A stretch of 64,000 bases of DNA from an uncultured Clostridia bacterium (GCA_947591785.1 CANQDK010000004.1:12137-76136), one strand, 5' to 3'. Positions 848 to 44,934 are shown, numbered from the stretch's first letter. Numbers and translations: made by a program. Notes: a model not told the origin generated them from the sequence alone.

Positions 848-2836
848 ATGAACATGAAAGATAGCGAAAAAATTAATAAAAAACCACAAGATGAAATGCA
901 AAGGATGAAACAACTTGTTGAAGAAATTTTGATGCATAACAAAAACTATTATGAATTGGACAATCCGACAATTTCTGATAAAGAATGGGATAAATTGTAT
1001 GACGAACTGCTCTCTTTGGAAAAGAAAACAGGGATTGTTTTGCCAAATTCTCCATCACAGCGTGTTGGTGGAGATATGCTTGATAAATTTGTAAAGAAAA
1101 AACATGAAATAAGACTTTATTCCTTGAACAAGGTGAGAACTTTTGCTGATTTGGGAAGCTTTTTTGATGACATGGAAAAAGCTGTCAAAAATCCAACTTT
1201 TGCGGTGGAATATAAATTTGATGGTTTGACAATCGTGACGGAATATATTGATGGAAAGTTTGTTTCGGCAACCACGCGAGGCAATGGCGAAGTTGGTGAA
1301 GATGTCACAGAGCAAGTCCGAACAATCCACAGTGTTCCACTTGAAATTCCTTTCAAACATCATCTTATTGTTCAAGGCGAAGGAATGATGACAAATAAGG
1401 CTTTCAAGCAATACAACAAAACTGCAAGCGAACCACTCAAAAATCCAAGAAATGGTGTTGCTGGAGCAATAAGGAATCTTAACCCAAAAGAAACTGCACG
1501 CAGAAAATTGGATTATTTTTGTTATGGAATCCTTCTTTGCGATGGCAAAAAGTTTACATCGCAGGCTCAAATGCACGACTTTTTGGTGGAAAATGGTTTT
1601 AAAACAGGTGATTTTTTTGAAATTGTGAAAACGCGAGAGGAAGCGGAAAATTTGATTCGTAAGATTGATAAAGTCAAAAACAGTCTTGATGTTATGATTG
1701 ATGGAATGGTTGTCAAACTCAATCAAGTTACTCCTCGAGAAGAAATTGGTTACACAAACAAGTTTCCAAAATGGGCAATGGCATTTAAGTTTGAGGCGGA
1801 AGAAGTTTCAACAATGCTGAATGATGTTGTGTGGCAAGTTGGAAAATCAGGAAAAGTGACTCCTATTGCTGTTCTTGAACCTGTCGAACTTGCTGGTGCA
1901 ACAATCAAAAGAGCAACGCTAAATAATATTGAAGACATAAAGAAAAAGAATGTTTTTTTGAAAAGTAGGGTTTTTATAAGGCGTTCTAATGAGGTTATTC
2001 CTGAAGTGCTTGGGCTTGCTGAAAAATACGATTATTCAAAGGAAATTTTAGAACCAAAAACATGCCCATGTTGTAGGCACAAACTTGTGAAAAAAGGGCC
2101 ACTTCTTTTCTGCACAAATTTCTTTGGTTGTAAAGAGCAGGTTGTTGCACGACTTGTAAACTTTGTCAGCCGTGAAGCCTTCAATATTGAAGGTTTGAGT
2201 GAAATGACATTGAATCAATTTTATGATGATTTGAACCTAAGACATTTTTCTGATATTTTCAAGTTGAAAAAAGAACAACTTATGGGGCTTGAAAAATTTG
2301 CGGACAAAAAAGCAAAGAATTTGCTTGATAGCATTGAAAAAGCAAAAAATATTGAATTTTCTCGCTTTATAAATGCGTTGGGAATAAGCGAAGTTGGGGT
2401 TAAAACTGCTCGTGACTTGGCAAAACATTTTAAGACTCTTGAAAATTTGCGAAAAGCAAAATTTGAAGAAGTTGACGAAATTGGTGATATTGGTGAAGTT
2501 ATTGCACATAATGTCGTTGATTTTTTTGCTGATAAAAACAACCAAAAGGAAATTGACAGCCTGCTTGAAGTTGGTGTTAAGATTGAAGAGGAGATGGGGG
2601 CAAAAACAAGCAAACTTGCTGGGCTGACATTTGTCTTGACAGGAACTTTGCCAAACTATTCAAGAAGTGATATGAGCAAACTTATTGAAGAAAATGGCGG
2701 AAAAACTGCGTCTAGTGTTTCAAAAAACACCTCTTATGTTCTTGCTGGCGAGGAAGCAGGAAGCAAACTTCAAAAAGCGAAAGAACTTGGAATCAAAATT
2801 ATTGACGAAAACGAAATTTTGAAAATGATGAAGTGA
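848..2836 (+). CDS. ligA: NAD-dependent DNA ligase LigA
   Basis: Adenylation motif EYKFDGLT, Cys4 zinc finger (CPCC...C..FFGC), HhH repeats and a C-terminal BRCT domain (LTFVLTGTL). GGAGG at 837-841 lies 6 nt before ATG 848, which I prefer over the TTG at 818. Confidence 0.95.
   Translation: MNMKDSEKINKKPQDEMQRMKQLVEEILMHNKNYYELDNPTISDKEWDKLYDELLSLEKKTGIVLPNSPSQRVGGDMLDKFVKKKHEIRLYSLNKVRTFADLGSFFDDMEKAVKNPTFAVEYKFDGLTIVTEYIDGKFVSATTRGNGEVGEDVTEQVRTIHSVPLEIPFKHHLIVQGEGMMTNKAFKQYNKTASEPLKNPRNGVAGAIRNLNPKETARRKLDYFCYGILLCDGKKFTSQAQMHDFLVENGFKTGDFFEIVKTREEAENLIRKIDKVKNSLDVMIDGMVVKLNQVTPREEIGYTNKFPKWAMAFKFEAEEVSTMLNDVVWQVGKSGKVTPIAVLEPVELAGATIKRATLNNIEDIKKKNVFLKSRVFIRRSNEVIPEVLGLAEKYDYSKEILEPKTCPCCRHKLVKKGPLLFCTNFFGCKEQVVARLVNFVSREAFNIEGLSEMTLNQFYDDLNLRHFSDIFKLKKEQLMGLEKFADKKAKNLLDSIEKAKNIEFSRFINALGISEVGVKTARDLAKHFKTLENLRKAKFEEVDEIGDIGEVIAHNVVDFFADKNNQKEIDSLLEVGVKIEEEMGAKTSKLAGLTFVLTGTLPNYSRSDMSKLIEENGGKTASSVSKNTSYVLAGEEAGSKLQKAKELGIKIIDENEILKMMK
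2690..2836. repeat. Direct repeat copy 1 (functional ligA 3' end), partner at 4966-5115
   Basis: Colinear with 4966-5115. A 36-nt block is exact (2742-2777 = 5019-5054). Confidence 0.85.
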
Positions 2837-2971
2837 ACGCGTGTGCAATTTTGCACTCAATGTTGTTTTGTGGCGTTATTTGTGAAATTTTGTGTAAATT
2901 TTTGTTTGTGGTTGCAAGCAAAAGATTTTGCGTACGGCTGTGATTTTTTTGACTGAAATCAAAAAAGGGGG

Positions 2972-2999
2972 TTGACAAATTCTTCTTCTATGATAAAAT
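2972..2999 (+). promoter_or_regulatory. Sigma-A-type promoter for sigma-like ORF A
   Basis: TTGACA at 2972-2977, a 16-nt spacer, and TGaTAAAAT (extended -10) ending at 2999. Confidence 0.55.
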
Positions 3000-3034
3000 A
3001 TTGATGTATTATGTATATATGAAACATCAGTAGA

Positions 3035-3050
3035 TGTGATAACTATCACA
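3035..3050. promoter_or_regulatory. Perfect TGTGA-N6-TCACA inverted repeat in the ORF A 5' UTR
   Basis: The sequence is TGTGATAACTATCACA. The 7-nt arms are exactly complementary. Confidence 0.4.
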
Positions 3051-3090
3051 AGAACATAGCACAAAAATTGCAAGCACAAAGGAAAAGCAG

Positions 3091-4992
3091 ATGGAAGAGG
3101 AAAAGAAACCAAAAAAGAAGATTGACGAAGAAACCCTGAATGGACTTAAAGAGAGTTATGGTGCTCTTCCAAAGGCTCTTGATGCCGAAAAAAATCGAGA
3201 ATTGCTTGAAAAATATAAAGAAACAGGTGACATTGAAATCCGAAATCAAATTGCGTGCGGCAATCTAAGGTTTGCTGTAAAATATGCATATAAATACTTT
3301 CAAAACGTGGTGTTTAAATGTTATAAAGATCAAGTTGGCGATTTGATACATGACCTCACAATAAGCCTTTTCAAAACGATTGAAAAGTTTGATACTTCAA
3401 AAGAATATACCTTTTTGACTTTTGCCAGCAGTGTTATTCGCAACGATTTGTTGATGAAATTCAGAAAAACAAAATTATTGAAAAACAAAGCAGTGATTGT
3501 TTCTTTTTCTTCGCCAACGCACTCTTATAAAGGTGGCGATGAAATTAGATATGAAGATGTGCTTACTGACGAGAAATTCACAGAAGAAAATTTTGTCACC
3601 AGTGCTGATTTGAAATACATTTTGGAAAAAATCGTTCCGACTCTGCCTGAAAGAGATAGAATACTTTTTACAGAATTTTTTATTGAAGGAAAGTCACGGT
3701 CGGAATGTGCAAAAAGTATCGGTTTAGCAAATGGTTCAATGCCTAAGGCTATCACAGAACTTCGTAAAAAAATTGTTCTCGCCTATGAAAATGGCATTGC
3801 AGGCAAGGAAGGCAGCAAGGGTAAAGCCACCCAAACTTATTCGCAAGGGGCGTCCTCGTTTGAAGAAATGTTGACGCAGCAAGCCAAGCGAGATCAAAAC
3901 ATTTTGAGGGATTATTTTGCAGGCAAACTTACATTGAAGGAAGTTGCAGCAAAATACAATATATCAATAGGGAATGTGAATTATATTGTCAGAGAATTTA
4001 AGTATGATTGTGAACTGCGAAATGTTGAAGTTCCAAAAAGAATGAAACCACAATCAAATTGGGCACGACAACAAGAGCAGCGTGCCCTCAGCAAACAAAA
4101 AACGCAGCAGAGAAACGAAGCTGTTGTGAAGGACTATGTAAATGGACTGCTGATGAGAGAAATTGCTGAAAAACATTCACTGACAGTCGGGAATGTGGGC
4201 TATATTGTTTCAAAGTGGAAGGCAGAACAGAAAAATGAAGGCAAAGAAGCACTTCTGACATCGAAAGTAACACTTGGGAAGAAAGAGCGAAACAAAAATA
4301 TTTTTGCGGACTATATGGCAGGTGAAATGACAACAGATGAGATTGCTGAGAAATATTCCATTTCAAAGGCACTTGTCAGGTATGTTGTCGCAAAGACAAA
4401 GGCTGAACTTACCCAGCGTGGCGAGAATGTTCCACGAAAAAAACGCGTTCAAAAGCTGAAAAATCCGGTTGTTTTGAAGCAGGCCAACCAAATTGAAGCC
4501 GCGATTTCTCTTGACGATGTTCTTGCACTGCTCACGGACAAAAGGAGAAAAATTTTTGAGAGTTATCAAAATGCTGATGGCACAGTGAAAGATGTCGCCA
4601 AAGGGCTTGGAATTTCGCAAGCTTATGTTCTCGATGTTGTCACAGAAGTGAAGAGAAAATGCAAAGAAAAAGGCATTGAAATGCCAAAAATGTCAAGACA
4701 AATTGTCAAAATCGCGGTGCTTAAAGGCTTTGAAGATGGAACTTTGACTTTTGAACAGGTTGACAAGTTTATGGGCAAACTGACTGAAAGTCAGAGACAG
4801 GCACTTTATGATTGGAAAGAGCAAAAAACACAAGAAAGAAAGCAGGAGCAATGTGCGAAAAAAACATCAGAGCCAGACCCTGAAAAAGATGTGACAGATT
4901 CTGACAGGAAAATCAACAAAGCCAAACAAAATGGTGACAAAGATGGGAAAACCGCCGAAAGTGATGAAAATGGTGGAAAAAACTGCGTCTAA
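3091..4992 (+). CDS. Sigma-70-like protein (regions 2 and 4) with a C-terminal array of four HTH-like repeats
   Basis: Region 2-like DLIHDLTISLFKTIEKFDTSKEYTFLTFASSVIRNDL and region 4-like LPERDRILFTEFFIEGKSRSECAKSIGL. Four units follow of the type (D/S)Y-x3-4-(T/L)-x2-E(I/V)A-x-K(Y/H)-x-(I/L)S-x-G/A-x-V-x-Y(I/V)V. The stop codon lies inside the ligA-tail remnant. Confidence 0.8.
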   Translation: MEEEKKPKKKIDEETLNGLKESYGALPKALDAEKNRELLEKYKETGDIEIRNQIACGNLRFAVKYAYKYFQNVVFKCYKDQVGDLIHDLTISLFKTIEKFDTSKEYTFLTFASSVIRNDLLMKFRKTKLLKNKAVIVSFSSPTHSYKGGDEIRYEDVLTDEKFTEENFVTSADLKYILEKIVPTLPERDRILFTEFFIEGKSRSECAKSIGLANGSMPKAITELRKKIVLAYENGIAGKEGSKGKATQTYSQGASSFEEMLTQQAKRDQNILRDYFAGKLTLKEVAAKYNISIGNVNYIVREFKYDCELRNVEVPKRMKPQSNWARQQEQRALSKQKTQQRNEAVVKDYVNGLLMREIAEKHSLTVGNVGYIVSKWKAEQKNEGKEALLTSKVTLGKKERNKNIFADYMAGEMTTDEIAEKYSISKALVRYVVAKTKAELTQRGENVPRKKRVQKLKNPVVLKQANQIEAAISLDDVLALLTDKRRKIFESYQNADGTVKDVAKGLGISQAYVLDVVTEVKRKCKEKGIEMPKMSRQIVKIAVLKGFEDGTLTFEQVDKFMGKLTESQRQALYDWKEQKTQERKQEQCAKKTSEPDPEKDVTDSDRKINKAKQNGDKDGKTAESDENGGKNCV

Positions 4993-5115
4993 TGTTTCAA
5001 AAAATATCTCTAATGTTTTTGCTGGCGAGGAAGCAGGAAGCAAACTTCAAAAAGTGAAAAAAACTTGGCATCAAAATCATTGACGAAAACGAATTTATTG
5101 AAAATGTTAAAATGA
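4966..5115 (+). pseudogene. Decayed duplicate of the ligA 3' end (BRCT tail)
   Basis: Aligns colinearly with 2690-2836. It has two single-A insertions (A6 at 4977-4982 versus A5; A7 at 5057-5063 versus AAAGAA) and many nonsynonymous changes. Confidence 0.85.
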
Positions 5116-5188
5116 TTTTTATGGTTGTTTGTAATGTTATAACCAATAAAAAATTTTTATTTTCTGTCCATAAATTTGAAATTTGATA

Positions 5189-5217
5189 TTGACAAATCCA
5201 ATTATGGTTGTTAGAAT
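5189..5217 (+). promoter_or_regulatory. Sigma-A-type promoter for sigma-like ORF B
   Basis: TTGACA at 5189-5194, a 17-nt spacer, TAGAAT at 5212-5217. A 10-bp inverted repeat (5193-5202 / 5222-5231) brackets it. Confidence 0.6.
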
Positions 5218-5240
5218 AAGGATTGGATTTGTGAGGTATT

Positions 5241-7508
5241 ATGGAAAATTCTGACGAAAAAGTTGGGCTTGATCTTATTTATTGGAATAAGAATTGTAAT
5301 ACAATTCATCTTAATAAAGAAGAAAGATTGGCTCTTTTAAGAGAATACAGAAAGTATGGTGAACCAGCAGTGCGTGAAAAATTGATATACGGTTCTATTG
5401 GGCTTGTTCTTGCTTTTGTTTCACACAATTATGAAGAATTTGGTAGAAAACTAGACAGAATCAATCCAGATTTTGAGGATATTTTTCAAACGGGTTTGGA
5501 AGTTTTATGTGGTGCCGTTGATAGTTTTGATCCTGATGCTTATAATTTTGAATTTTCAACTTATCTTTATCACAGAATTGATTGGAAACTTCGCAGAGAT
5601 GTTTTTCATCATAAAAGCATAATTCCTTTTGTTTCTACTGATGATAAAATAGACGATGATGGGAGATTTTTAGGAGAAATTTTACCAGATTCTAATTTTG
5701 ATATTGAACAATTAATTCAATCTATGGATATGAGTTATCTTAAAGAGAAAGTCATTCCTTTTCTCTCTTCGCAAGAAAAACGCATATTTGAATATTATTT
5801 CTTTGATGAACTTCCATATTCTGAAATTGGGAAAATTTTTGGATTTTCACAAGAAAGAGTTCGTCAACAACTTGACAGTGCAATAAAAAAAGTTACAAAA
5901 ATTTTTCAAGAAGGGCCAACTGAAATAGATAAAATAACTAGGGGCGTTCAGTTAAGGAAATCTGCCATTGAAAGAATTGAAAAAAATCAAAAGCTTTTTG
6001 AAAAATATGGGAGAGCTTTCCTTAAACAACATTTTAGGCCTCTTTTGACTCCAACACAAAAAGATGTTTTTGATAGTTTCTTTTTAAATTATCGTGGGCA
6101 AGAAGTTGCTAGGATGCTTTCCACAGTAAAAGATATTGAGAAAAAACTTGATAAGAAAGGCCCAGAACTTTTAAAGAAAAAAGAAAATGGCGAATTAGCC
6201 GTGAAGAAACCAACTCTAAGGCAACAACAATGTAAAAACAGGATAGAACGCTTGTTGAACCAGTATGGTGGGAGATTGTTCCTGCAAAAGTATTTTGTTC
6301 CTACTCTTGAACCAACCACAAAAAAAGTCTTTGAAAAAGGACTTTTAGAATACGATTTTGATTCTCTTAAGGAAATGGCGAAGCAAACGGGATTGTCACC
6401 AACAAAGTTTAAAGATATTTTGATGGAAAGTGTTGAGCAACTTAAAAATACTGATTTTGAAACTATAGTGAGAGTTGTTGATTTTAAAAATAGTTTTTGG
6501 GGAACAAGAAATATTGATGAAAAGATTGATACTGAACTTATAAGACAAAAATTTGAACTTGTGAAAAAATTTGGTGGAGAAATTGTCCTAAGAAAATATT
6601 TCTGTCCTATGCTCTCAGAAGATGAAAAGAAGGTTTTTGATTGTTTATATTTAAGACAAAATTTCACTTCTTACGAAAATGCTTCAAAAATTCTTGGTAA
6701 AACTGTTGGAGAAATTATTAGCACAGAAAAAGTGGTTTTAAGCAAACTTGAAAACACCAATTTGGAAGAACTTAAAGAAATTGAGAAAAAAGCCAATTTG
6801 TATATTAGTAAAGCATTTTCAACAAGCACTTCGCATGACAAAAATAAAATGAGAAGAAAAATTATATGCAATTATGGTGGAATCCAATTTTTGAGAGAGA
6901 GGTTTATTCCAACAATCTATGCAAAAATTGATAAAGAAATTTTTGAAAAATACATACTTCATGGAGTTCTATCAGATGAATTGAAACATCTTTTCAACAA
7001 TGGATTTGCAAAAAGAACTAATAAAGATGGATATGTTAAAGAGATAAGTGTTTCAGGAAAGATTGGATTCAGAATTAAAAATTATATATTGCCACAACTT
7101 GAAAAGTTTAAAGCCAGTTTTGAAAATTTCGAGCAAACTGTGAAAGAATTCTATATGAAAAAAGGGTTTGAAACAGTTCACTCGGAAGATTTTGAAAAAT
7201 TGACATTTGATGAAATTGCTGAAAAGACTGATGAGAAAAACAAAAAACAGTTTGAAATATTCTCTCCAGAACTTATCCAAAGAGCAGGCGGGGAGAAAGA
7301 AGTGCTTAGAAACTTCAGGCCAACATTGAATTCTGTCACGAAGCAGTTGATTTTATTTAAATCCCTTACAGAAAAAATTAGCGACATTCAAATTGCAAAG
7401 GAACTTGGGCTTACTTCTGATGAATTTAATGAATCAAAGGAAGAAATTGCAGATAAACTTCAAAATTATGTAGAGAAAAAAGAAAAGAAAGAAGGAAAAA
7501 GCAAATAA
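5241..7508 (+). CDS. Sigma-70-like protein with five C-terminal region-4-like repeat modules
   Basis: Region 2-like FEDIFQTGLEVLCGAVDSFDP..FEFSTYLYHRI and region 4-like LSSQEKRIFEYYFFDELPYSEIGKIFGFSQERVRQQL. Five modules follow with the motif (Y/F/A)GG-x3-(F/V)L-x-(K/E/N)-x-F-x-P-x-L-x4-K-x-(V/I)F. Confidence 0.8.
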   Translation: MENSDEKVGLDLIYWNKNCNTIHLNKEERLALLREYRKYGEPAVREKLIYGSIGLVLAFVSHNYEEFGRKLDRINPDFEDIFQTGLEVLCGAVDSFDPDAYNFEFSTYLYHRIDWKLRRDVFHHKSIIPFVSTDDKIDDDGRFLGEILPDSNFDIEQLIQSMDMSYLKEKVIPFLSSQEKRIFEYYFFDELPYSEIGKIFGFSQERVRQQLDSAIKKVTKIFQEGPTEIDKITRGVQLRKSAIERIEKNQKLFEKYGRAFLKQHFRPLLTPTQKDVFDSFFLNYRGQEVARMLSTVKDIEKKLDKKGPELLKKKENGELAVKKPTLRQQQCKNRIERLLNQYGGRLFLQKYFVPTLEPTTKKVFEKGLLEYDFDSLKEMAKQTGLSPTKFKDILMESVEQLKNTDFETIVRVVDFKNSFWGTRNIDEKIDTELIRQKFELVKKFGGEIVLRKYFCPMLSEDEKKVFDCLYLRQNFTSYENASKILGKTVGEIISTEKVVLSKLENTNLEELKEIEKKANLYISKAFSTSTSHDKNKMRRKIICNYGGIQFLRERFIPTIYAKIDKEIFEKYILHGVLSDELKHLFNNGFAKRTNKDGYVKEISVSGKIGFRIKNYILPQLEKFKASFENFEQTVKEFYMKKGFETVHSEDFEKLTFDEIAEKTDEKNKKQFEIFSPELIQRAGGEKEVLRNFRPTLNSVTKQLILFKSLTEKISDIQIAKELGLTSDEFNESKEEIADKLQNYVEKKEKKEGKSK

Positions 7509-7586
7509 AAGTCCAAAATTAATTCAAAATTTCCAATTTAAATTGTAATTTTAAAATTTGTAAAAGTTTTAATAAAGGGACTGGTT

Positions 7587-8402
7587 ATGTCGAGAGGATC
7601 AACAAATGAAAAATATATGTACCTTATTGGAGAATTCCCAGAAGGACTGACAAATCAAGAAAATTCTGAATTGCTTGCTCAATACAAGGTGACAGGCGAC
7701 AGGAAATTGCGTGATAAAATTATCTATGGGAATTTGAGGCTTGCAATTTCTTATTCATGGCAAAAGTTTAATGGACAAATTTATTATCAATATATTAGGA
7801 AAAACGAATATGAAGATTTAATTCAAGATTTGTCGATGATAATCTTAAATGCTGTGGAAAATTTTGATGCATCAAAAAGTTTTGCATTTTCCACTTTTCT
7901 TTGCTCTTGCATTCACAATGATTTTGTAAGAAGAATTAAAAAATCTTCTTGTCTTAAAAATAGTGCAAAGGTTATTTCTTTCTCATCTGTTTTATTTAAA
8001 GATGATAAAGGAAAAGATATAACTCTTGAGCAAGTCATTAAAGATGAAAAGCACACCGAAGATAAGATTCTTGCTTCCGCAGATGTGAAAATTATAATGG
8101 GGAAAATTCTTCCTTTCTTGCCAGAAAGACAACAACTTGTTTTTAAAAAATATTTTATCGAAGGAAAAAAACAAAATGAAATTGCACAAGAAATTGGAGT
8201 TAGTCAAGAGCAAATCAGTCGTGATTTAAGAAAATCAAAAGAGATTGTTGAGTTTATTTACAATAATGGCATAAGGGCTTATGAAATTGCTCAATCGCAA
8301 CCAAAACAAAAAAATATGGAAAAAGATACACAAAAAACTGAAAAAAATAAGCATAGCACTTCAAAAAAAGAAGTCAGCAGAACAAAATGTGCAACAAAAT
8401 GA
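7587..8402 (+). CDS. Sigma-70-like protein, short paralogue of ORF A
   Basis: DLIQDLSMIILNAVENFDASKSFAFSTFLCSCIHNDF and LPERQQLVFKKYFIEGKKQNEIAQEIGVSQEQISRDL. It is colinear with the N-terminal 240 aa of ORF A and has a Lys-rich tail. Confidence 0.8.
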   Translation: MSRGSTNEKYMYLIGEFPEGLTNQENSELLAQYKVTGDRKLRDKIIYGNLRLAISYSWQKFNGQIYYQYIRKNEYEDLIQDLSMIILNAVENFDASKSFAFSTFLCSCIHNDFVRRIKKSSCLKNSAKVISFSSVLFKDDKGKDITLEQVIKDEKHTEDKILASADVKIIMGKILPFLPERQQLVFKKYFIEGKKQNEIAQEIGVSQEQISRDLRKSKEIVEFIYNNGIRAYEIAQSQPKQKNMEKDTQKTEKNKHSTSKKEVSRTKCATK

Positions 8403-8709
8403 GTATTTTTGTTCGATTAGTCTTTTGATAAATTTTTTCGTAGATATTTTGTTTTATAATAATTTAAAATTCCTATCAAATAAAAATATTTGAGTTTTTA
8501 AATGTCGAATTTTCATTTCAAAGTTTTACTTAAATTTTATTTCAAAGTCTATTTCAAATTTTTATGTTCCCTTTCTCTCTATGTTTCCTATGGAATTTTT
8601 TATAAATACCATTTATATGATTAATCTTTGTATTTGCTTTTTATCTATATTTGGTTTTTATTAAAAATTAATATTTAATTAAAAATAATAAGAAAAAGAC
8701 AAAAAATGC

Positions 8710-8738
8710 TTGACAAGAGAAAACAATATGTGTATAAT
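8710..8738 (+). promoter_or_regulatory. Consensus sigma-A promoter
   Basis: TTGACA at 8710-8715, an exact 17-nt spacer, TATAAT at 8733-8738. Confidence 0.7.
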
Positions 8739-8744
8739 ACACTT

Positions 8745-8926
8745 TGTGTTTCGTTGTCGGAAACAGTGCTTAGGTTAAGTAAGCATAAACAAACAACAGG
8801 TGGCGGAAATCCGTTTCACCGATTGGAAAATTCATTTCCAAGAACCATTATGGTTTTGTGTTGTTCGTGTTTCAAATTGTTTAAGCATTTTTTATGGCAC
8901 GAAATCGTTTCGTGCCATTTTTTTTA
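8745..8926 (+). ncRNA. Unclassified structured RNA (independent sRNA or terminator-containing leader of the str operon)
   Basis: Bounded by the consensus promoter and an 11-bp-stem terminator. Internal hairpins lie at 8747-8765, 8799-8820, 8823-8841 and 8843-8855. There is no SD or credible ORF. Confidence 0.45.
8894..8926 (+). terminator. Rho-independent terminator
   Basis: ATGGCACGAAA-tcg-TTTCGTGCCAT followed by a T-run. Confidence 0.8.
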
Positions 8927-9019
8927 GATAGCTTTTGCTCTCAAACAAAAAATTGACAAATCTTTGTTCAAGATTTAAAAATGGAACAAATCGCCATTTG
9001 GCTTAAAAGGAGAAAAAGA

Positions 9020-9400
9020 ATGCCTACATTTAACCAACTCGTTAGAAACGGACGTAAAACTTTTGAGAAGAAGAAAAAATCTCCTCTTCTTGAAGAATGC
9101 CCTCAAAAGCGTGGTGTATGTTTGTCTGTGAGAACTGCAACTCCTAAAAAACCTAACTCTGCTCTTCGTAAAATCGCCAGAGTTAAGCTTTCAAACAAAC
9201 AAGAAGGAACTTGCTATATCCCAGGCATTGGACACAACCTTCAGGAACACAGTGTTGTGCTTGTTCGTGGCGGACGTGTGAAGGATCTTCCTGGTGTTAG
9301 ATATCATATCATCAGAGGAACTCTTGACACTGCTGGTGTTGCAAACAGAAAGCAAAGCCGTTCCAAATATGGTGCAAAAAGACCAAAAGCTGGAAAATAA
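9020..9400 (+). CDS. rpsL: 30S ribosomal protein S12
   Basis: [13 protein letters not shown]...[16 protein letters not shown] precedes ATG 9020, so the track start at 8981 is rejected. Confidence 0.97.
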
Positions 9401-9559
9401 TCTCTTTAAGAGGTTTTTAGCAGATTTTCACTTATGTATTAACTAAAAACATAAACTAAAAAATGTTCAAATGTTTATAAGTGAATGAAAATTTTAAAAT
9501 AGCACTGAAAATATTATTTTTACGTGCAAATCAATATTAACAAAAGGAGTTTATAACCA

Positions 9560-10033: not shown

Positions 10034-10234
10034 GATTTGCTGTTTGTTTGCATTCATATCTATTTGAAAAATTCGCTCGCTTCAAGATTTTTTATAAAAT
10101 TTTCAATTTAAAAATTTTTGAAGAAACGATTTGATAATGAAAATTTTACTAATAAAAATTATACTAATTTGATTAAAGGTTTTTGTCTATTCCTTTAAAA
10201 ATAGGCAAAATTTAATTAAAAGGATAGATTAATT

Positions 10235-12307: not shown

Positions 12308-12478
12308 AAGACTGTAAAATTTAGCATTTTATTTCATAAAATTTTTGTTAATTGAAATTAAAAATATAATTTTTATAAATTTTGCAATTATTTTTTGAAA
12401 ATGTGTAAAATTATTTTGTTTTTTCAAAAAACTATGATAAAATATGAAAAGTAATTATTATTAAAGGAGATTTTTAAA

Positions 12479-13681
12479 ATGGCTACAGGAAAATATGATA
12501 ACACAAAACAGCATGTTAACGTTGGAACTATCGGCCACGTTGACCATGGTAAAACAACCCTTACAGCAGCAATCACAATGACACAAGCTGCAAAGGGATA
12601 TGCTCAACAAATGAGATATGATGAAATCGATAAAGCACCAGAAGAAAAGGCTCGTGGAATCACAATCAACACTGCTCACGTTGAATATCAAACAGATAAA
12701 CGTCACTATGCACACGTTGACTGCCCAGGACACGCTGACTATGTTAAAAACATGATTACAGGTGCGGCTCAAATGGATGGTGCAATCCTTGTTGTTGCTG
12801 CAACTGATGGCCCAATGCCTCAAACAAGAGAACATATCTTGCTTGCAAGACAAGTTGGTGTTCCATATATCGTTGTTTTCATGAATAAAACTGACCAAGT
12901 TGATGACCCAGAACTTCTTGACCTTGTTGAAATGGAAATTCGTGACCTTTTGACAGAATATGGATTCCCTGGAGATAAAACTCCAATCATTAAGGGTTCT
13001 GCTTTAAAAGCTTTGGAAGCTGCTCAAGCTGGAAAGGTTGATGATCCTGCTTGTGCTTGCATTAACGAACTTATGGATGCTCTTGACTCATACATCCCAG
13101 ACCCAGTTCGTGACACAGATAAACCATTCCTTATGCCTGTTGAAGATGTTTTCACAATCACAGGACGTGGAACTGTTGCAACAGGAAGAATTGAAAGAGG
13201 AAAAGTTAAGATTAACGATACTGTTGAAATCGTTGGTATGGGTTCTAAGAAACAAAGCGTTGTAACAGGCGTTGAAATGTTTAGAAAAACTGTTGACGAA
13301 GGTATCGCAGGATACAATGTCGGCATTCTTCTTCGTGGTATTCAAAGAAATGAAATCGAAAGAGGACAAGTTCTTTGCAAACCAGGTTCAATTCACCCAC
13401 ACACAAAATTTGCAGCTGAAGTTTACGTTTTGAAGAAAGAAGAAGGCGGACGTCATACACCATTCTTCAATGGATATCGTCCACAATTCTATTTCCGTAC
13501 AACTGACGTTACAGGAACAATTGAACTTCCACAAGGCGTTGAAATGGTTATGCCAGGCGACAATGTTAAGATGACAATCGAACTTTCAAAAGAAATCGCT
13601 ATTGAACAAGGACTTCGTTTTGCTATCCGTGAAGGTGGCAGAACAGTTGGTTCTGGTGTTGTTTCTCAAATCATTGAATAA
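12479..13681 (+). CDS. tuf: Elongation factor Tu
   Basis: [32 protein letters not shown] upstream. The last 13 codons are repeated at 14974-15012. Confidence 0.98.
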
Positions 13682-13712
13682 TAAAAAACGGCTATAATGC
13701 CCTAAAATAAAG

Positions 13713-13738
13713 GTGATCACAGATGTGGTCACTTTTTT
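13713..13738 (+). terminator. Rho-independent terminator directly after tuf (inside the islet)
   Basis: GTGATCAC-agat-GTGGTCAC (8 bp with one G-U pair) followed by T6. Confidence 0.7.
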
Positions 13739-13750
13739 GTTGTGGTCAAC

Positions 13751-13792
13751 TTTTTGGCCATTTTGGGCAATTTTGACCGCATTTTGACCACA
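13751..13792. repeat. Four tandem 10-11-bp repeats TTTTGRCCRCA
   Basis: The units are ttttggcca, ttttgggcaa, ttttgaccgca, ttttgaccaca. Inverted copies TGTGGTCA lie at 13724-13732 and 13741-13749. Confidence 0.7.
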
Positions 13793-13912: not shown

Positions 13913-13940
13913 TTGATATTACAAGGATTTGTGATATAAT
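13913..13940 (+). promoter_or_regulatory. Promoter placing the TSS on or next to the ATG of the cargo gene (possible leaderless mRNA)
   Basis: TTGATA at 13913-13918, a 16-nt spacer, TGaTATAAT with -10 at 13935-13940. ATG 13947 is 7 nt downstream and has no SD. Confidence 0.5.
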
Positions 13941-13946
13941 ATTCAC

Positions 13947-14786
13947 ATGGAAAAAATGAATACCAATATAGCAATGTTTATTCGTTGTGAAGATCGTCCA
14001 ACTAATGAAATAATATCAAATGAAGAAAGTTTGAAGTTGGCTGTTCAAGCTGGATTTAAAAAAATATTTATGTCTTTTAAGGCGAATCATCTGTTTGAAG
14101 GACAATATAGAAAATTTTATGATCTGGCTAAATCTTATGGTTTAGAAGTAGTATTTGTACATTTAGGATATCAAGTTAATGAAGGAATTGCAACCATTTG
14201 GGAAGAAGGACTCGCTGGAGATCAACTTGTTGCGGATTACAAAAGGGATTTGGAAATTGTTGCAAAAGATGGAATTAAAATGGTGTGTATGCACGTAACA
14301 AAAAGTAGTAAACAATCGCCTATGTCTAAAATCGGCCTTAAACGTTGGGAAGAGATAGTAAAGCACGCAGAGAAATTAGGAGTAATAGTGGCTCTTGAAA
14401 ACACTGTATGGCCTGGTTATATAGAATTTATTTTAGACAACATTCAAAGTCCAAATTTGCAAGTTTGTTTTGATAGCGGACACAATCATGTGTATTTTAA
14501 AGATGGTTTTGATTTTAAAAGGTTTAAAAATAAAATAGCATGTATTCATTTACATGATAACGACCAATCAAAAGATTTACATTTACTTCCTTTTGACGGC
14601 ACAATTGATTGGAAGTTCTTAGCTGAAAATTTGCGAGAGGCAAATTACAAAGGGGTAATAGCTTGTGAGTCTGGATACAAACGAGGCTATGTGAATGAAC
14701 TCACTCCACTAGAATTCTTTACAGAGGCGTATAGACGATTAGAAAAAATTGATGATATGGTTAATTTGCCCACACAAGCAAAATGA
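13947..14786 (+). CDS. Sugar phosphate isomerase/epimerase (xylose isomerase-like TIM barrel / AP endonuclease 2 fold)
   Basis: 279-aa ORF with family-typical strands: VFVHL, CMHV, VALEN, CFDSGHNH, IHLHDN. An alternative start exists at 13956. Confidence 0.75.
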   Translation: MEKMNTNIAMFIRCEDRPTNEIISNEESLKLAVQAGFKKIFMSFKANHLFEGQYRKFYDLAKSYGLEVVFVHLGYQVNEGIATIWEEGLAGDQLVADYKRDLEIVAKDGIKMVCMHVTKSSKQSPMSKIGLKRWEEIVKHAEKLGVIVALENTVWPGYIEFILDNIQSPNLQVCFDSGHNHVYFKDGFDFKRFKNKIACIHLHDNDQSKDLHLLPFDGTIDWKFLAENLREANYKGVIACESGYKRGYVNELTPLEFFTEAYRRLEKIDDMVNLPTQAK

Positions 14787-14813
14787 CGACCCCATTTTGG
14801 TCAAATGATTGAA

Positions 14814-14835
14814 TTTTGACCACATTTTGACCACA
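14814..14835. repeat. Two exact tandem TTTTGACCACA units
   Basis: 14814-14824 and 14825-14835 are identical to 13782-13792. An inverted GGTCAAA copy lies at 14799-14805. Confidence 0.8.
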
Positions 14836-14973
14836 TTACGTAAAATACGTTAGATATTTGTAGGAGACTCTAAGTATCAAAAAAATATTTTTACACCGAG
14901 AACGGCTTTATTTTAAAGAGGGCTAGACGTCTGTAGGTTATTCCTAGCGACGCCTAGATATTAATATCCCTAA

Positions 14974-15012
14974 ACTGTTGGCTCTGGTGTTGTTTCTCAG
15001 ATTATCGAATAA
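14974..15012 (+). pseudogene. Orphan copy of the last 12 codons plus stop of tuf
   Basis: ACT GTT GGC TCT GGT GTT GTT TCT CAG ATT ATC GAA TAA encodes [12 protein letters not shown], identical to the Tuf C-terminus. It differs from 13643-13681 at 5 positions, all synonymous. Confidence 0.85.
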
Positions 15013-15020
15013 TAAAAAAA

Positions 15021-15046
15021 AGATTGCAAGTTTGCAATCTTTTTTT
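15021..15046. terminator. Strong bidirectional rho-independent terminator (probable ancestral tuf terminator)
   Basis: AGATTGCA-agtt-TGCAATCT with an A-run before it and T6 after it. Confidence 0.8.
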
Positions 15047-19654: not shown

Positions 19655-19658
19655 AAAT

Positions 19659-33618: not shown

Positions 33619-33652
33619 TAAAAAATAACCTAAAATTAATTTCTTTTAGGTT
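33619..33652 (-). terminator. Rho-independent terminator ending the tRNA-Trp/phosphatase/HAD unit
   Basis: AACCTAAAA...TTTTAGGTT with a T-run on the minus strand. Confidence 0.65.
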
Positions 33653-33664
33653 ATCGTCTGTAAA

Positions 33665-33691
33665 GCACAAACAAATTAATTAGAACTCATT
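33665..33691. repeat. Direct repeat X (copy of the phosphatase gene 3' end), partner 34370-34396
   Basis: 25 of 27 nt are identical. It supplies the last 4 codons and the stop of the HAD gene, read in a different frame. Confidence 0.8.
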
Positions 33692-34329
33692 TCTTGAATT
33701 ATTTTGTCTAATTTTTCTAATGTATCATTAATGTTTGAATTGTCGAACAGAAATGTTTTTCCGCCAAGTTCTTCAAAAGGATACAAGTTTTTTATATTGT
33801 CATCAATAAAAATACTGTTTGTAGTGTTAATATTAAATTTTTCTAAAGCTTTTAAATAAAATGAAATATCTGGTTTCCTTAAACCAAAATCGCAAGAAAA
33901 TGCATCATTATCAAACAAGGACAAATCCAAAAATTTAGGCAAAATATCAACAATTTCTTTGCACATATTAGACATAATAAAAATTTTGCAACCTTTGCTT
34001 TTGATTTTTTTTATAAATTCTATTGTTTGCAAATAAACAAAATTGTTTTCTGGGTTTAATACACTATAAAAAACTTCTTTGATGACTTCATCAGGTTCTT
34101 TGCTTTTTCTTAAAATTTCACGAAAAACATCTTCTGCAAGCACAAAGCCTTTGTCCCATTCTTTAAATATTGGAAGAGAAAGATATCTTCCAACAAAATC
34201 GCATAAACCATCATTTTGATATTGTAGTTGATATTTTTTCTTTAGTTTTTCTGGCAAAATTTCCAAAATAGGAGTGTTTTTGATTCCTCTAATTACGCCA
34301 TCTAAATCAAAAATAACATTTTTTATCAT
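33676..34329 (-). CDS. HAD-superfamily hydrolase
   Basis: VIFDLDGVI (motif I), SNM, IFIDDN. GGGGAG precedes ATG 34329. Confidence 0.8.
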   Translation of the reverse strand: MIKNVIFDLDGVIRGIKNTPILEILPEKLKKKYQLQYQNDGLCDFVGRYLSLPIFKEWDKGFVLAEDVFREILRKSKEPDEVIKEVFYSVLNPENNFVYLQTIEFIKKIKSKGCKIFIMSNMCKEIVDILPKFLDLSLFDNDAFSCDFGLRKPDISFYLKALEKFNINTTNSIFIDDNIKNLYPFEELGGKTFLFDNSNINDTLEKLDKIIQEMSSN

Positions 34330-34341: not shown

Positions 34342-34376
34342 TGTTTCTATATAGGTTGTTCATGGCAGGGCACGAA
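34342..34376. repeat. Degenerate copy of the tRNA-Trp 3' end plus downstream flank, partner 34981-35015
   Basis: 26 of 35 nt match without gaps, including the exact 8-mer TGGCAGGG (the CCCTGCCA acceptor/CCA end). Confidence 0.6.
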
Positions 34377-34396
34377 CAAACTAATTAGAACTCATT
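34370..34396. repeat. Direct repeat Y (authentic phosphatase 3' end)
   Basis: See the partner at 33665-33691. Confidence 0.8.
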
Positions 34397-34966
34397 ATTA
34401 AATTTATTTTTCTTGTTAAAATCCAATATCAAAGGGCTTCCTGTTGGAATTTCAAAAGTTAGATAATTGCCATCTTTTGGCTTTCCTTTAAAATAACTCA
34501 TTAAAACACATCCAACTCCACCATGAGAGACTAATAAAATGTTATCATTAGGATTTTTCTTTAATTCATCTAACAATTCGAAAACACGTGTTTCAACATC
34601 ATTAATCGATTCTGCTTTTTCAAATTTCTGTTTTCTATTTGAATTCCAAAATCCATTAAAATCAAATTCGCTACGTGTTAAACCTTCAAACTCTCCAAAA
34701 TCTCTTTCAATCAAACGATCGTCAATCTCAACAGTTGCCGTGCCATTTGAAATTATATCACAAGTTTGTCTTGCTCTTATGAGTGGACTGCAAATTATTC
34801 TTTTAAATTTAATATTTCTAAGAAATTCTTTTGTTTTTTCAGCTTGTTTTAAGCCTGCTTCATTTAAAGGAAGATCAACTCTTCCTTGGCATTTAGGACA
34901 CTTTATTCCATCGGAATTTCTGTAATCATTCCAATCTGTAGAGCCATGTCTTACAAAATATATCAT
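34385..34966 (-). CDS. Histidine phosphatase family protein (phosphoglycerate mutase-like)
   Basis: IYFVRHGSTDWN (RHG motif) and a later SHGG. Confidence 0.85.
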   Translation of the reverse strand: MIYFVRHGSTDWNDYRNSDGIKCPKCQGRVDLPLNEAGLKQAEKTKEFLRNIKFKRIICSPLIRARQTCDIISNGTATVEIDDRLIERDFGEFEGLTRSEFDFNGFWNSNRKQKFEKAESINDVETRVFELLDELKKNPNDNILLVSHGGVGCVLMSYFKGKPKDGNYLTFEIPTGSPLILDFNKKNKFNNEF

Positions 34967-34980: not shown

Positions 34981-35015
34981 TGATTCGATTTAGGTTTTGC
35001 TTGGCAGGGGTGGAA
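34981..35015. repeat. tRNA-Trp 3' end plus 21-nt downstream flank (partner 34342-34376)
   Basis: See the partner at 34342-34376. Confidence 0.6.
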
Positions 35016-35075
35016 GGAGTTGAACCCTCCTCTGGAGTTTTGGAGACTCTCATTCTACCGATGAACTACACCCCT
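35002..35075 (-). tRNA. trnW: tRNA-Trp (anticodon CCA), CCA end encoded
   Basis: The minus strand reads AGGGGTGTAGTTCATCGGTAGAATGAGAGTCTCCAAAACTCCAGAGGAGGGTTCAACTCCTTCCACCCCTGCCA. It folds as a cloverleaf with anticodon loop CUCCAAA and T-loop GGTTCAACTCC. Confidence 0.9.
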
Positions 35076-41860: not shown

Positions 41861-42667
41861 ATGGCAAAAATAAAAACTGCAATTCAATTTGGACTTGTTT
41901 ACATTCCAGTCACACTTCATTCATGCACAAAAAATACTGATATTGGTTTCAATCTTCTTTATAAAAAAACTGGACAAAGAATTAGATATAAAAAAACTTG
42001 TGAAAATTGTCCTGCAAAAATATCGCAAGATGATATTGTGAAGGGGTATGAATATGAGAGAGGAAAATATGTTATTTTGACTTCTCAAGAATTTGAAAAA
42101 CTTAAAACAAAAAAAGATGAAAATATTGAAATTTTCCAGTTTTCACGTCTTGAAGAAATTGATCCAATTTTTTACGAGGATTCATATTATGTTGAGCCTG
42201 TTGGAGCAAAGAATGCTTATTTTCTACTTTCAAAAGCGTTAGAAAGCGAGAAGAAAGTTGGGATAGCAAAAACTGTCTTGGGGCATACAGAGAGTTTAAT
42301 CGCTTTACGGGTTATTGAAGGGCTTCTTGTTATGTCAAAATTGCATTTTGCTGACGAGGTTCAAGAAAATCCTGTTGAAAAATCTAAAAGCACTGTAAAA
42401 AAAGAAGAACTTGAACTCGCAAAAAAATTGATTGAAAATATGACAAAAAAGTTTGATATAAATGACTATAAAAACGAATATAAGGAAAGAGTTCAAAAGG
42501 CGATTGAAAATAAAATTGCTGGACAAGAAATTCAAACGCCAAAATCCGCAAAAACAAAAACGATTGCCAATATTATGGATGCACTTAGACAATCAATTAA
42601 AAACGAGGAAAATGATGATGAAAATGAATATGAAAATAAAATTGTTAAAATGAAAAAACGAGCATAA
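41861..42667 (+). CDS. ku: Non-homologous end joining protein Ku
   Basis: IQFGLVYIPVTLHS, DIVKGYEYERGKYVILT, EIDPIFYEDSYYVEP. It is colinear with B. subtilis YkoV as I recall it. Confidence 0.92.
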   Translation: MAKIKTAIQFGLVYIPVTLHSCTKNTDIGFNLLYKKTGQRIRYKKTCENCPAKISQDDIVKGYEYERGKYVILTSQEFEKLKTKKDENIEIFQFSRLEEIDPIFYEDSYYVEPVGAKNAYFLLSKALESEKKVGIAKTVLGHTESLIALRVIEGLLVMSKLHFADEVQENPVEKSKSTVKKEELELAKKLIENMTKKFDINDYKNEYKERVQKAIENKIAGQEIQTPKSAKTKTIANIMDALRQSIKNEENDDENEYENKIVKMKKRA

Positions 42668-42910: not shown

Positions 42911-43774
42911 TTAATTGTCAAGAGAGGATATTGTTCCAAGATTTTTATAGATAAGGCCAAGTTGATAATTCTGATTGTTGTAGGAAAAGTTAAATGTTAT
43001 TAAATATGTTTTTGTGTTGGAATCGTAACTTACATTTCTTGTATAAGAAGCTTGTGGATTTTGCTCTGTGTAGCTTTCTGGTTGAAATAAGACATTTATA
43101 TCAAACTCTCTATAAGAACCATTAAATGTTGCATCAACATGAATCCTTTGTGCTTGATTTGGATCTAGTTTCAAAACATTTGTAACTTTCTTTTCAGGAA
43201 AAACAAGAACATTATCTTTTATGCTTAAATTTGATTCAGAAAAAGTGAGAACTGAATTGCTTGATTGAACTATATCAAAACTTGCATCAAGAATTGGCGA
43301 TGATGAGCCATCATCTATTTGAGGCGGGATTGAAGAATCGGTTGTCAGATATAATGAATCAAATTTTACATATTTCATTTTTTTATCTTCAAAAATGGCA
43401 GTGTATTGTCCCTGTGTGTTTTTATTGACTCTAAATGACAATTCACTTGATACGATAATTTCTTCGTCATTCACAACCTGAGTTTCATTTTTGATTGTAT
43501 ATCTCGAATCCGATTCAAGTTCGGTTTCTTCTTGGAACAGCCATGTAATAAATTTGCCATAACTTCCATCATTTTTCGGATTTGAGGTTGCTCTTAATGT
43601 TATCAATGTTCCTTCTTTATATGGCGTTGAACTTATCTTTTCAACTTTTCCTTCATTCCACGAATTCACTTCGACAGTAATAAGAAAGGATTCCACCTTT
43701 TCATTGCAACCAAAAAGAGCAACTAAAGGAAAGAAAGATAGTAGCAATAAAAATATCACAATTTTTTTTCTCAT
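42911..43774 (-). CDS. Lipoprotein of unknown function
   Basis: GGAGGA precedes ATG 43774. Signal peptide with lipobox LFGC. Confidence 0.65.
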   Translation of the reverse strand: MRKKIVIFLLLLSFFPLVALFGCNEKVESFLITVEVNSWNEGKVEKISSTPYKEGTLITLRATSNPKNDGSYGKFITWLFQEETELESDSRYTIKNETQVVNDEEIIVSSELSFRVNKNTQGQYTAIFEDKKMKYVKFDSLYLTTDSSIPPQIDDGSSSPILDASFDIVQSSNSVLTFSESNLSIKDNVLVFPEKKVTNVLKLDPNQAQRIHVDATFNGSYREFDINVLFQPESYTEQNPQASYTRNVSYDSNTKTYLITFNFSYNNQNYQLGLIYKNLGTISSLDN

Positions 43775-44147
43775 GGACTCCTCCAAAAAGACGCTTGTCT
43801 ATTTTTATCAAATTTTAAACTTTGTTTTTCAAGCCTTGTTTTAACTCTAATTCTCATTTTTAAATTTAAGAAAATTTAGCGTTTTATGTTGTATTTTTGA
43901 ATTTTGTGTTACTAAAAAACTTTCTTATTAAACTAAATTAAAGTTATAAGTTAAACCACTCAATTTTATAATACTTATTTTTTTAGAAAAAAGCAAATTT
44001 TTTTGTGAGTTTACTTAAAATCGTCAAAAAAAATTATTTGTTTTTTTGAGTATTTTTAAACTGCTTGCATAAAATAGTTGTTGTGTAGGGTTTGTGCGAA
44101 TCTTTATGTTACGCAAACTTGCAAAATGAGTCTTACAAGGAGTTTTT

Positions 44148-44918
44148 ATGTGGGAACTTTCAATTTCGGTGAGTTCAAAAAACCTTGAAATTGCCAGATT
44201 TATTTATCAAACACTTAAAACAAAAACTGAAAACTGTGCATCTGTAATCACTTGTTATGAAGAATTTGATAACTTTTTTATTTTATTTGGCTGCCCGATT
44301 GAAGAACAGGTGACGGCACGTATGGAAATCGAGAAGTGCATTGTTAAGGCAATTTGTAATTTTTACAAAGAAAGATACTTGACTGAAAATTTGCACTTGC
44401 CTGCACATGAAAATATGAGTTTGACTGCCTTTAAGAAAGCCTTGATAAATTTTGATAAGGAAACTGATTTTTATATCATAAGCAAAAATCTCAAATTGGA
44501 AAAAAATCTATATTTAGACGAATTTTATCTTTTCAAACTTAAATCATTGCGTGAAAAGTGGGCGGAACTCGTTGCACTTGCAAATGAAAATAGTGATTAT
44601 TTAGTCAGCAATGAAGCCTTTTTTGATCTTTTGAAATTTTTAATAGATAATCTTGAAGTCTGTGAAGAAGAAATCAATGTTTTTGAAAAAAATAACGGCT
44701 ATTTTATTAAGGCGAAAGACAAAGATTTGTTCTGTGAAAATTTGTCTCAAGAAGGGCTTGTTTCAAGTTTAATTGAGTTATGTCCAAAGAAAATAAATTT
44801 GTTTTGTCGCTCTGATGACAACACTGCTGGTTTTTTGAGTCGTATTTTTGACGAACGAATAAACGTTTGCTATAACAAAAATTTAGAAAAAGTTGATAAA
44901 TTTTCTGTTTTAAAATAA
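44148..44918 (+). CDS. ytxC: Putative sporulation protein YtxC
   Basis: Its position directly upstream of thrS matches Bacillus. Its size and the LYLDEFYLFKL region are YtxC-like. Confidence 0.65.
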   Translation: MWELSISVSSKNLEIARFIYQTLKTKTENCASVITCYEEFDNFFILFGCPIEEQVTARMEIEKCIVKAICNFYKERYLTENLHLPAHENMSLTAFKKALINFDKETDFYIISKNLKLEKNLYLDEFYLFKLKSLREKWAELVALANENSDYLVSNEAFFDLLKFLIDNLEVCEEEINVFEKNNGYFIKAKDKDLFCENLSQEGLVSSLIELCPKKINLFCRSDDNTAGFLSRIFDERINVCYNKNLEKVDKFSVLK

Positions 44919-44934
44919 ATTTTCTGTTTTAAAA
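44897..44934. repeat. Perfect tandem duplication (2 x 19 bp, TAAATTTTCTGTTTTAAAA) spanning the ytxC stop codon
   Basis: 44897-44915 is identical to 44916-34. Confidence 0.9.

Follow-up and report, generated by a model that had tools for sequence, protein, structure and literature searches.

Units that keep the ends of an integrative element and no longer have its genes for integration and transfer are known as cis-mobilizable elements (CIMEs). Such units are described among streptococcal elements related to ICESt1, as is the tandem accretion in which an extra unit settles at a distal attachment (att) site (Pavlovic et al. 2004; review PMC5704250). A CIME is flanked by attL and attR, and one of the two repeats includes the 3′ end of the target, a housekeeping gene or tRNA gene, which thus stays intact. 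We analysed a window of 64,000 nt (the whole stretch GCA_947591785.1 CANQDK010000004.1:12137-76136, from an uncultured Clostridia bacterium), in which accessory genes follow conserved genes and are bracketed by copies of the conserved gene's 3′ end. An earlier sequence-only reading had pointed out this pattern at four sites, likened it to integrase-less CIMEs and concluded that it could not be mapped onto a described system. The pattern does correspond to the published definitions of CIMEs and tandem accretion (PMC5704250), and the likeness is apt for a module behind tuf, which has attL, attR and putative arm-type doublets and no integrase. The accretion would be matched by a gene for a HAD hydrolase behind a phosphatase gene at tRNA-Trp. 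The units differ from known CIMEs in being far smaller (one gene, 0.7-1.3 kb), in their targets (tuf and tRNA-Trp, in a gut Firmicute that is uncultured and whose class is uncertain) and in that their cognate integrases look phage-borne rather than borne by an integrative and conjugative element. No functional partner element was seen here, and any mobilization in cis is hypothetical.

In temperate phages, attP can carry the 3′ end of the host gene, and phage HP1 has a long identity between attP and attB; integrases that target tRNA genes were reportedly surveyed by Williams in 2002. The tuf module resembles such phages in that the core repeat restores the target 3′ end, arm-type sites appear to flank the core and the integrase lies beside attL in intact relatives, but the unit in the window has no phage genes. 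Homology-facilitated illegitimate recombination (HFIR), reportedly the subject of studies by de Vries and Wackernagel and by Prudhomme et al., both in 2002, may correspond to a third locus, ligA, where a conserved gene would provide the homologous anchor on one side and a microhomology the junction on the other, with foreign genes caught in between. Its experimental cases are confined to competent species and E. coli conjugation, whereas we read it here from one junction, and the tuf site does not fit it. Integron cassettes are likewise promoterless or single-gene units in a row behind a fixed site, but here there is no intI and no attI, and the units have no attC-type imperfect palindromes in common with one another. 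With no integrase in the window and junction repeats that copy the host gene end, the units fall outside the integrons.

What we see in the window are probably decayed, integrase-less integrative elements at two loci (tuf, and tRNA-Trp with apparent tandem accretion) and one scar of illegitimate recombination (ligA). That most of the pattern is the scar of tyrosine-integrase integration at the 3′ ends of conserved genes, with the integrase subsequently lost, is in our judgement the probable explanation. Self-BLAST of the window (dust on, E<=1e-3) returned four matches, three of which are gene-tail repeats (ligA, tuf and phosphatase/HAD), and such repeats are therefore far above chance. These three are real, whereas the tRNA-Trp repeat, also among the four sites pointed out earlier, is weak; the proposed footprint of integration at gene 3′ ends is supported for tuf, HAD and tRNA-Trp and not for ligA. 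The observation that no recombinase is in sight was borne out, since Pfam searches of about 40 open reading frames (ORFs) in the window and tblastn with six phage integrases gave nothing significant and no remnant. The sites would share no common core because different integrases serve different targets.

The tuf module and tuf-targeting proviruses

The last codons of tuf occur twice in the window (Table 1). The two copies agree at 42 of 47 positions, all five differences are synonymous third positions, and the longest perfect run is 17 nt. The TIM-barrel gene is the only ORF of at least 80 aa between the repeats, and the module spans 1.3 kb. We compared the window with the relatives GCA_947630745.1 (L091), GCA_947625165.1 (L099) and GCA_947588355.1 (L100); contigs L093 and L094-L097 were also compared. 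L100 has the bare backbone, tuf-terminator-sepF, and its tuf tail and terminator align with the displaced copy of the window and the DNA after it. The displaced copy, being orthologous to the L100 tuf end, therefore represents the ancestral 3′ end of the gene, still where it originally stood. The resident tuf tail of the window equals that of L091 at all five positions that differ between the window copies, and tuf of L091 is followed by the same replacement terminator, TTTTGACCAC motifs and promoter as in the window. Three genes lie behind tuf in L091, encoding a P-loop protein, an inositol-monophosphatase-like protein and, third in the operon, the TIM-barrel protein. DNA identity between L091 and the window was about 68% in rpsL, rpsG and fusA, 76% in a single alignment of tuf and the non-coding leader, and 77-89% (in 60-nt windows) over the last 70 nt of tuf plus the leader, but 95.2% over the TIM-barrel gene plus 40 nt. 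Because the TIM-barrel gene stands at 95.2% against 68-76% for its neighbours, we conclude that the module moved between lineages. The promoter in the window is fused in frame to the TIM-barrel start, and the two upstream genes have therefore apparently been lost. Among TIM-barrel homologs at 60% identity, none adjoins tuf.

The tuf-tail pattern was found in 26 IMG/VR viral contigs, mostly at the contig edge. A PF00589 tyrosine integrase lies directly 3′ of the tuf stop in L127, L106 and L125, and ~1.5 kb 3′ of the tuf tail in L105. Both ends of one provirus of ~41 kb, 3300045988_149796 (IMGVR_UViG_3300045988_149796), were recovered as L119 (attL) and L196 (attR), and these have a 44-nt repeat in common, AACAGTTGG…GAATAATATA. 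Its first nucleotide is that of window positions 13642 and 14973 (AACWGTTGG), and it ends just past the stop, approximately as in the window. The same junction is present in seven further contigs (L133, L138, L151, L169, L178, L180 and L186), and L133 (IMGVR_UViG_3300045988_154237, around 8853) contains an intact attP. Measured from the core start, all 16 scanned provirus copies that have sequence there show an 11-nt-period …CCAC/CTAC doublet at +92 to +102; of seven P-arm (attR/attP) copies scanned, six show it at -124/-125. The layout of this prophage family is thus core, terminator hairpin, 11-nt doublet and then integrase, and the integrase adjoins attL in the intact relatives L127, L106, L125 and L119. 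These comparisons suggest that the tuf 3′ end (last 40 nt) is a recurrent attachment site of an uncultured gut-Firmicute prophage family. The tuf-phage attP matched nothing at the DNA level in cultured phages, whose closest integrases are <30% identical; a tuf-like match in Moraxella phage Mcat7 was uninformative. Our literature search returned no paper naming tuf as an integration target, which is not proof of absence. The use of tuf as att site by an uncultured prophage family, the core-terminator-doublet layout and the very small size of the units may be new. In three other IMG/VR contigs (L109, L114 and L118), the integrase adjoins the 3′ end of guaA, which we take to be a known integration target, and tuf lies in the host flank only.

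Doublets are also present on the inner flanks of the module in the window. TTTTGACCRC doublets lie at +127 and -161 from the core start, and the entire 64-kb window contains just 16 such doublets. The inner repeat around the TIM-barrel gene (13752-13792 / 14795-14835) is best read as arm-type integrase sites because the proviruses carry like 11-nt doublets, and the doublets are presumably such sites. The TTTTGACCAC motif had been considered as a genome-wide repeat; it occurs around the TIM module only and was later reinterpreted as putative arm sites. The 47-nt repeat compares with the 44-nt repeat of the provirus, doublets lie on both inner flanks, and integrase and transfer genes have been lost. 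With attL and attR complete and no integrase, the tuf module therefore falls within the definition of a CIME.

We propose that the attP of an element would bring its own copy of the host gene end, that this copy would complete the host gene upon integration (attL), and that the native gene end would be pushed downstream, beside the native terminator (attR). At tuf, a phage-family integrase would have inserted an element with a core of the last 40 nt of tuf and a few bases. What remains, 1.3 kb, would be a replacement terminator, arm-type sites on both sides, a promoter and one TIM-barrel gene, the two upstream genes having been lost through an in-frame deletion. Such a module would be movable only with integrase supplied in trans. 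This order of events, and the present-day mobility of the units, are what we infer from the arrangement.

Other differences were seen around tuf. An M18 aminopeptidase gene (15414-16829, minus strand) lies between the ancestral tuf terminator and sepF and is missing in L100; it is another gain or loss at the tuf locus, and no flanking repeat was detected there. Tandem repeats of 142-150 nt come right after the tuf terminator in L100 (17532-17802), and one motif, CTTCTTGTCATCGAA, is found once in the window as well, 3′ of the displaced tuf tail. The str operon of L099 has an extra 122-aa ORF in the rpsG/fusA interval (16376-16744) and a DUF5680 gene in the fusA/tuf interval (18918-19403). The L099 contig stops at 20755, which corresponds to the first nucleotide of the tuf att core, a hint that L099 may also have a repeat or polymorphism at this place.

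The tRNA-Trp and ligA loci

On the minus strand, tRNA-Trp is followed by the phosphatase gene, junction J2, the HAD gene, junction J3, an AT-rich hairpin and T-run (recognised by eye and not called in the terminator scan) and serS. The phosphatase/HAD repeat (34370-34413 / 33665-33709) matches at about 39 of 43 positions with a longest perfect run of ~15 nt. The tRNA-Trp repeat (34352-34370 / 34991-35009) matches at 16 of 19 positions and comprises 8 nt of the tRNA (CCCTGCCA) and 11 nt of the trailer; a gapped, degenerate match extends to the T-loop and is clearer in L093. Homology among junctions J1, J2 and J3 extends over about 20-60 nt, with a degenerate tRNA-derived part and a crossover interval of 1 nt. 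According to the promoter scan, the phosphatase and HAD genes apparently lack promoters of their own.

Presence and absence of the cargo among relatives, a pattern on which the sequence-only reading depended, was found for HAD. Four contigs from other samples (L094-L097) are 99.7% identical to the window from the tRNA through the phosphatase gene and then run straight into the post-J3 DNA at 97% identity, so that HAD is missing and a single hybrid repeat is retained (GTGCCCT joined to ACAGATG). In L093, at 88% identity, the pseudo-tRNA end is kept behind the phosphatase gene, and a Peptidase_S51 gene starts from the same nucleotide in place of HAD. The IMG/VR provirus L261, a single example, has a full tRNA-Trp with a PF00589 integrase 120 nt downstream, and in this one provirus tRNA-Trp is an integrase target. 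The locus may represent tandem accretion at a distal att site, although the HAD difference could be an insertion or a deletion and the crossover interval is a single base. The phosphatase gene would have come to lie between the tRNA and a degenerate copy of the tRNA 3′ half, and the HAD gene would have been added at the distal tRNA-derived copy. Upstream of the tRNA-Trp promoter, the HAD-less contigs bear no relation to the window (L094 1-235 vs window 35316-35082), and serS of L094-L097 is 97% identical, compared with 99.7% for the phosphatase gene. The tRNA-Trp locus is a recombination mosaic.

The ligA repeat, previously given as 147/150, measured 136/151 plus three 1-nt A insertions (~88-90%), and the changes, mostly G>A and C>T, lie in the displaced copy. 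Because the differences are not adenine-specific and look mostly like G>A/C>T decay, we rejected an origin from a diversity-generating retroelement; the Pfam searches of about 40 ORFs found no reverse transcriptase in the window. Simple tandem duplication of the ligA tail together with a sigma gene was also rejected, since sigma755 has no detectable similarity to sigma633 while the tails are ~88% identical. The closest relative is L099 (ligA protein identity 89%), which has the order pcrA-ligA-sigma865-rpsL and is collinear with the window from 13 to 4358 at 81% DNA identity. Its sigma865 (L099 12264-14861) is the ortholog of sigma633 (62% amino-acid identity). The sigma gene had been taken for cargo of the ligA repeat, but L099 carries this ortholog behind ligA without any repeat; sigma755 and sigma271 are also missing there, and L100 has no sigma gene behind ligA at all.

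The DNA that the window has in excess of L099 is 4915-8745, with the pseudo-ligA tail at its start. The junction falls within the sigma ORF; the C-terminus of sigma865 is missing from sigma633, whose reading frame continues into the pseudo-ligA tail. A stop codon within the displaced copy, noticed earlier for two cargo ORFs, was thus confirmed for sigma633, as it was for HAD. The left edge of the pseudo-ligA tail coincides with a microhomology of ~20 nt between the start of the ligA tail, AGAAAATGGCGGCAAAACGGCG, and the 3′ end of L099 sigma865, AGAAGATGGCGG--AAACGGCG. This 3′ end is the best downstream match in L099 to the ligA tail start, with a score at the 95th percentile of shuffles. The donor arrangement ligA-sigma755 was not found; sigma755 has one detectable homolog in a set of 5.8 billion proteins (39% identity, L102), which adjoins an oxidoreductase. 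The ligA repeat is probably a microhomology-mediated illegitimate join, not an att site, and a different event from that at tuf. The 3′ end of the resident sigma gene would have been fused to a ligA tail fragment at the microhomology. The join could have come about in two ways, through one-sided homologous recombination with a relative's DNA or through internal deletion of a once larger insert. Sigma-70-like proteins form a family in the window, with three genes in a row behind ligA and one more at 52711-53385 (minus strand), and the long members (633, 755 and 865 aa) have several tandem helix-turn-helix (HTH) or region-4-like modules.

A perfect 19-bp tandem repeat without cargo does cross the stop codon of ytxC, as had been noted with the four sites. 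Nothing ties ytxC to the other sites, and we judge this repeat to be slippage, unrelated to them.

Table 1. Coordinates of repeats, genes and putative att features in the window
Feature	Position	Strand	Basis or remark
ligA (NAD-dependent DNA ligase), intact	848..2836	+	Pfam; likely start ATG 848, with ribosome-binding site; exact protein on record
Resident ligA 3′ end (BRCT tail), copy 1	2686..2836	+	Repeat alignment
Sigma-70-like gene sigma633, 633 aa, several HTH modules	3091..4992	+	Pfam; ortholog of sigma865
Pseudo-ligA tail	4962..5115	+	136/151, three 1-nt A insertions; AT-biased decay
Two more sigma-like genes, 755 aa (5241-7508) and 271 aa (7587-8402)	5241..8402	+	Pfam; missing in L099 and L100
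tuf (EF-Tu), intact	12479..13681	+	Pfam
Putative attL core	13642..13688	+	Last 12 tuf codons (presumably element-supplied), stop and 7 nt
tuf terminator hairpin, presumably element-supplied	13709..13736	+	Conserved in L091
P′ arm doublet AATTTTGACCGC/ATTTTGACCAC	13769..13791	+	11-nt period; putative arm-type integrase binding sites
Promoter-like site for TIM-barrel gene	13913..13940	+	TTGATA-16-TATAAT, 11/12, TG; conserved in L091
Cargo: xylose-isomerase-like TIM-barrel gene	13947..14786	+	PF01261
P arm doublet AATTTTGACCAC/ATTTTGACCAC (putative)	14812..14834	+	11-nt period
Putative attR core, displaced ancestral tuf 3′ end	14973..15019	+	Orthologous, with downstream DNA, to L100
Ancestral tuf terminator hairpin, bidirectional	15015..15046		Sequence comparison and terminator scan
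Junction J3	33625..33709	-	Displaced J2 copy, then AT-rich hairpin and T-run
Cargo 2: HAD hydrolase	33676..34329	-	PF00702; ORF stop inside J3
Junction J2	34352..34413	-	Phosphatase tail, degenerate tRNA-Trp 3′ half (…GTGCCCTGCCA), trailer
Cargo 1: histidine phosphatase	34385..34966	-	PF00300; after tRNA-Trp in 88%-identical L093 too
tRNA-Trp (CCA)	35002..35075	-	Promoter-like site 35140-35112
ytxC tandem	44897-44915 / 44916-44934	+	Perfect 19-bp duplication across ytxC stop codon

Competing explanations

A control scan covered 88 loci, mostly regions around tuf in other bacteria. Blautia producta DSM 2950 (NZ_CP039126.1; L081 11141-12481) has tuf-tail repeats of 166 nt with 95.8% identity and, as cargo behind tuf, a nucleotidyltransferase-HEPN (MNT-HEPN) pair; in Ruminococcus sp. 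Marseille-P6503 (L021 11147-12096), tuf-tail repeats bracket a 139-aa ORF. These two cases may represent another integrase family or another mechanism. They are among several observations that weigh against integration by a since-lost tyrosine integrase: both sets of repeats have their start 13 nt further upstream than the phage-type core, and the Blautia repeat, at about 96-99% identity, extends through the tuf terminator, an unusual feature in an att site. L091 has the TIM module and the P′ doublet without the attR core. The doublet spacing of +127/-161 in the window differs from about +95/-125 in the proviruses, and the arm-site function is presumed from layout. A cognate integrase for this organism was not found in the 64-kb window, and the ligA tails found in viral contigs were neither present in two copies nor next to an integrase. 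The tRNA-Trp repeat is short and degenerate, and the HAD-less allele switches from J2 type to J3 type across one shared base, which fits neither the clean 6-8-nt overlap of a tyrosine recombinase nor RecA-mediated deletion.

An account without any site-specific recombinase, to which we assign a minor share of the probability, is HFIR, with a homologous crossover in the conserved gene on one side and an illegitimate join on the other. DNA of a related lineage, taken up for example by transformation, would give the intact gene end and the downstream genes, and the truncated end of the recipient would be left as the repeat. The process is known from competent bacteria and E. coli (PMC3240628), and it accommodates the ligA junction inside the sigma ORF at ~20-nt microhomology, visible in L099, as well as the truncated sigma633 and HAD ORFs that read into displaced copies. 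Repeat lengths that vary (151, 47 and about 44 nt) around no common core, tuf differences that are all synonymous, as for two functional alleles, a backbone order conserved in relatives with variable gene content between the anchors, and the Ku gene in the window all agree with it. Uptake by transformation would call for a competent host, however, and HFIR predicts neither a tuf repeat that starts exactly at the provirus nucleotide, nor phage-type 11-nt doublets on both module flanks, nor two different cargos at the same nucleotide behind the phosphatase gene. Those doublets and the common core start point to an integrase and so also weigh against a recombinase-free circle of one gene tail and its cargo, which recombination between the flanking repeats would release and which would re-enter other genomes by a single RecA (Campbell-type) crossover in the conserved tail. 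This we regard as improbable, even though its predicted footprint is identical to the one observed, conservation of the tuf tail across lineages suffices for homology, the TIM module stands behind tuf in two genomes with neighbours at 68-76%, and the Blautia repeat runs for 166 nt through non-coding DNA at about 96-99% identity. The longest perfect match is 17 nt at tuf and about 15 nt at HAD, and perfect identity of 15-17 nt is below the usual minimum for RecA-mediated recombination; a donor-type tuf tail at all five variable positions would further require the crossover to fall at the very left end of the repeat. Serial joining of strain variants during metagenome assembly is a very remote explanation. 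The window is of metagenomic origin, short Logan contigs break off close to the tuf repeat, and the L099 contig stops at the tuf core start. Yet three independent SPAdes assemblies from different samples, fetched from ENA over window 6479-19681, are 100% identical to the window across both tuf copies, perfect identity of at most 17 nt is too short for k-mer graph collapse or mis-join, and the tuf architecture is also present in isolate genomes, one of them complete. An artefact, raised in the sequence-only reading, is thereby ruled out at tuf; the ligA pair and the tRNA-Trp locus lie outside the span of the three assemblies.

Integrase scars remaining our preferred explanation, a broader reading is that the one-gene units are a working class of miniature integrase-less cassettes with complete core and arm sites, shuffled in trans, which we hold to be rather unlikely. 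Equally doubtful in our view is the proposed agency, in which integrases of prophages resident in the community would move the units between the 3′ ends of housekeeping genes as an integron-like exchange layer. The observations are compatible with working cassettes because both doublets and both cores are intact around the TIM-barrel gene, which is 95% identical between two genomes with neighbours at 68-76% and lies behind tuf in both. They are compatible too because contigs with 97-99.7% identity to the window differ in whether they have HAD, L093 carries another gene at the same nucleotide, and similar small tuf units are present in Blautia producta and Ruminococcus.

Host context and wider meaning

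The window shows how essential genes, tuf among them, can gain accessory genes right behind them and stay undisrupted. Short repeats of gene 3′ ends are a reliable marker of past integration even where no recombinase remains, and the layout of core, terminator and 11-nt doublet can serve in the annotation of such scars elsewhere. If the units are mobilizable in trans, they would be an overlooked route for single-gene exchange in gut communities.

The window has a G+C content of 32% and core-chromosome content: pcrA-ligA, the str operon (rpsL, rpsG, fusA, tuf), sepF, lspA, rluD, rplU and rpmA, together with the sporulation genes yqfD and ytxC, serS, tRNA-Trp, dnaI, Ku, thrS, secDF and clpC. Among the matches listed from GTDB species-representative genomes, the closest EF-Tu is 84% identical and belongs to an uncultured Clostridia with no useful synteny. 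A ligA scan of metagenomes gave relatives at 58-68% only, and a 37-aa 'ligA cluster representative' (P0019) was spurious. The host is a gut Firmicute that has been poorly sampled and whose class is uncertain. The gene for Ku (PF02735, non-homologous end joining; 41861-42667, plus strand) is found here in a sporulating low-GC Firmicute and may bear on the illegitimate join at ligA; the 291-aa ORF that adjoins it (42911-43786, minus strand) has no Pfam match.

Direct repeats near tuf need not contain the gene tail. In a Ructibacterium sp. metagenome-assembled genome (L014), a DUF1846 gene lies between 144-nt direct repeats with 76% identity (11241-11383 / 13078-13221), which begin 38 nt past the tuf stop and are made of intergenic DNA.

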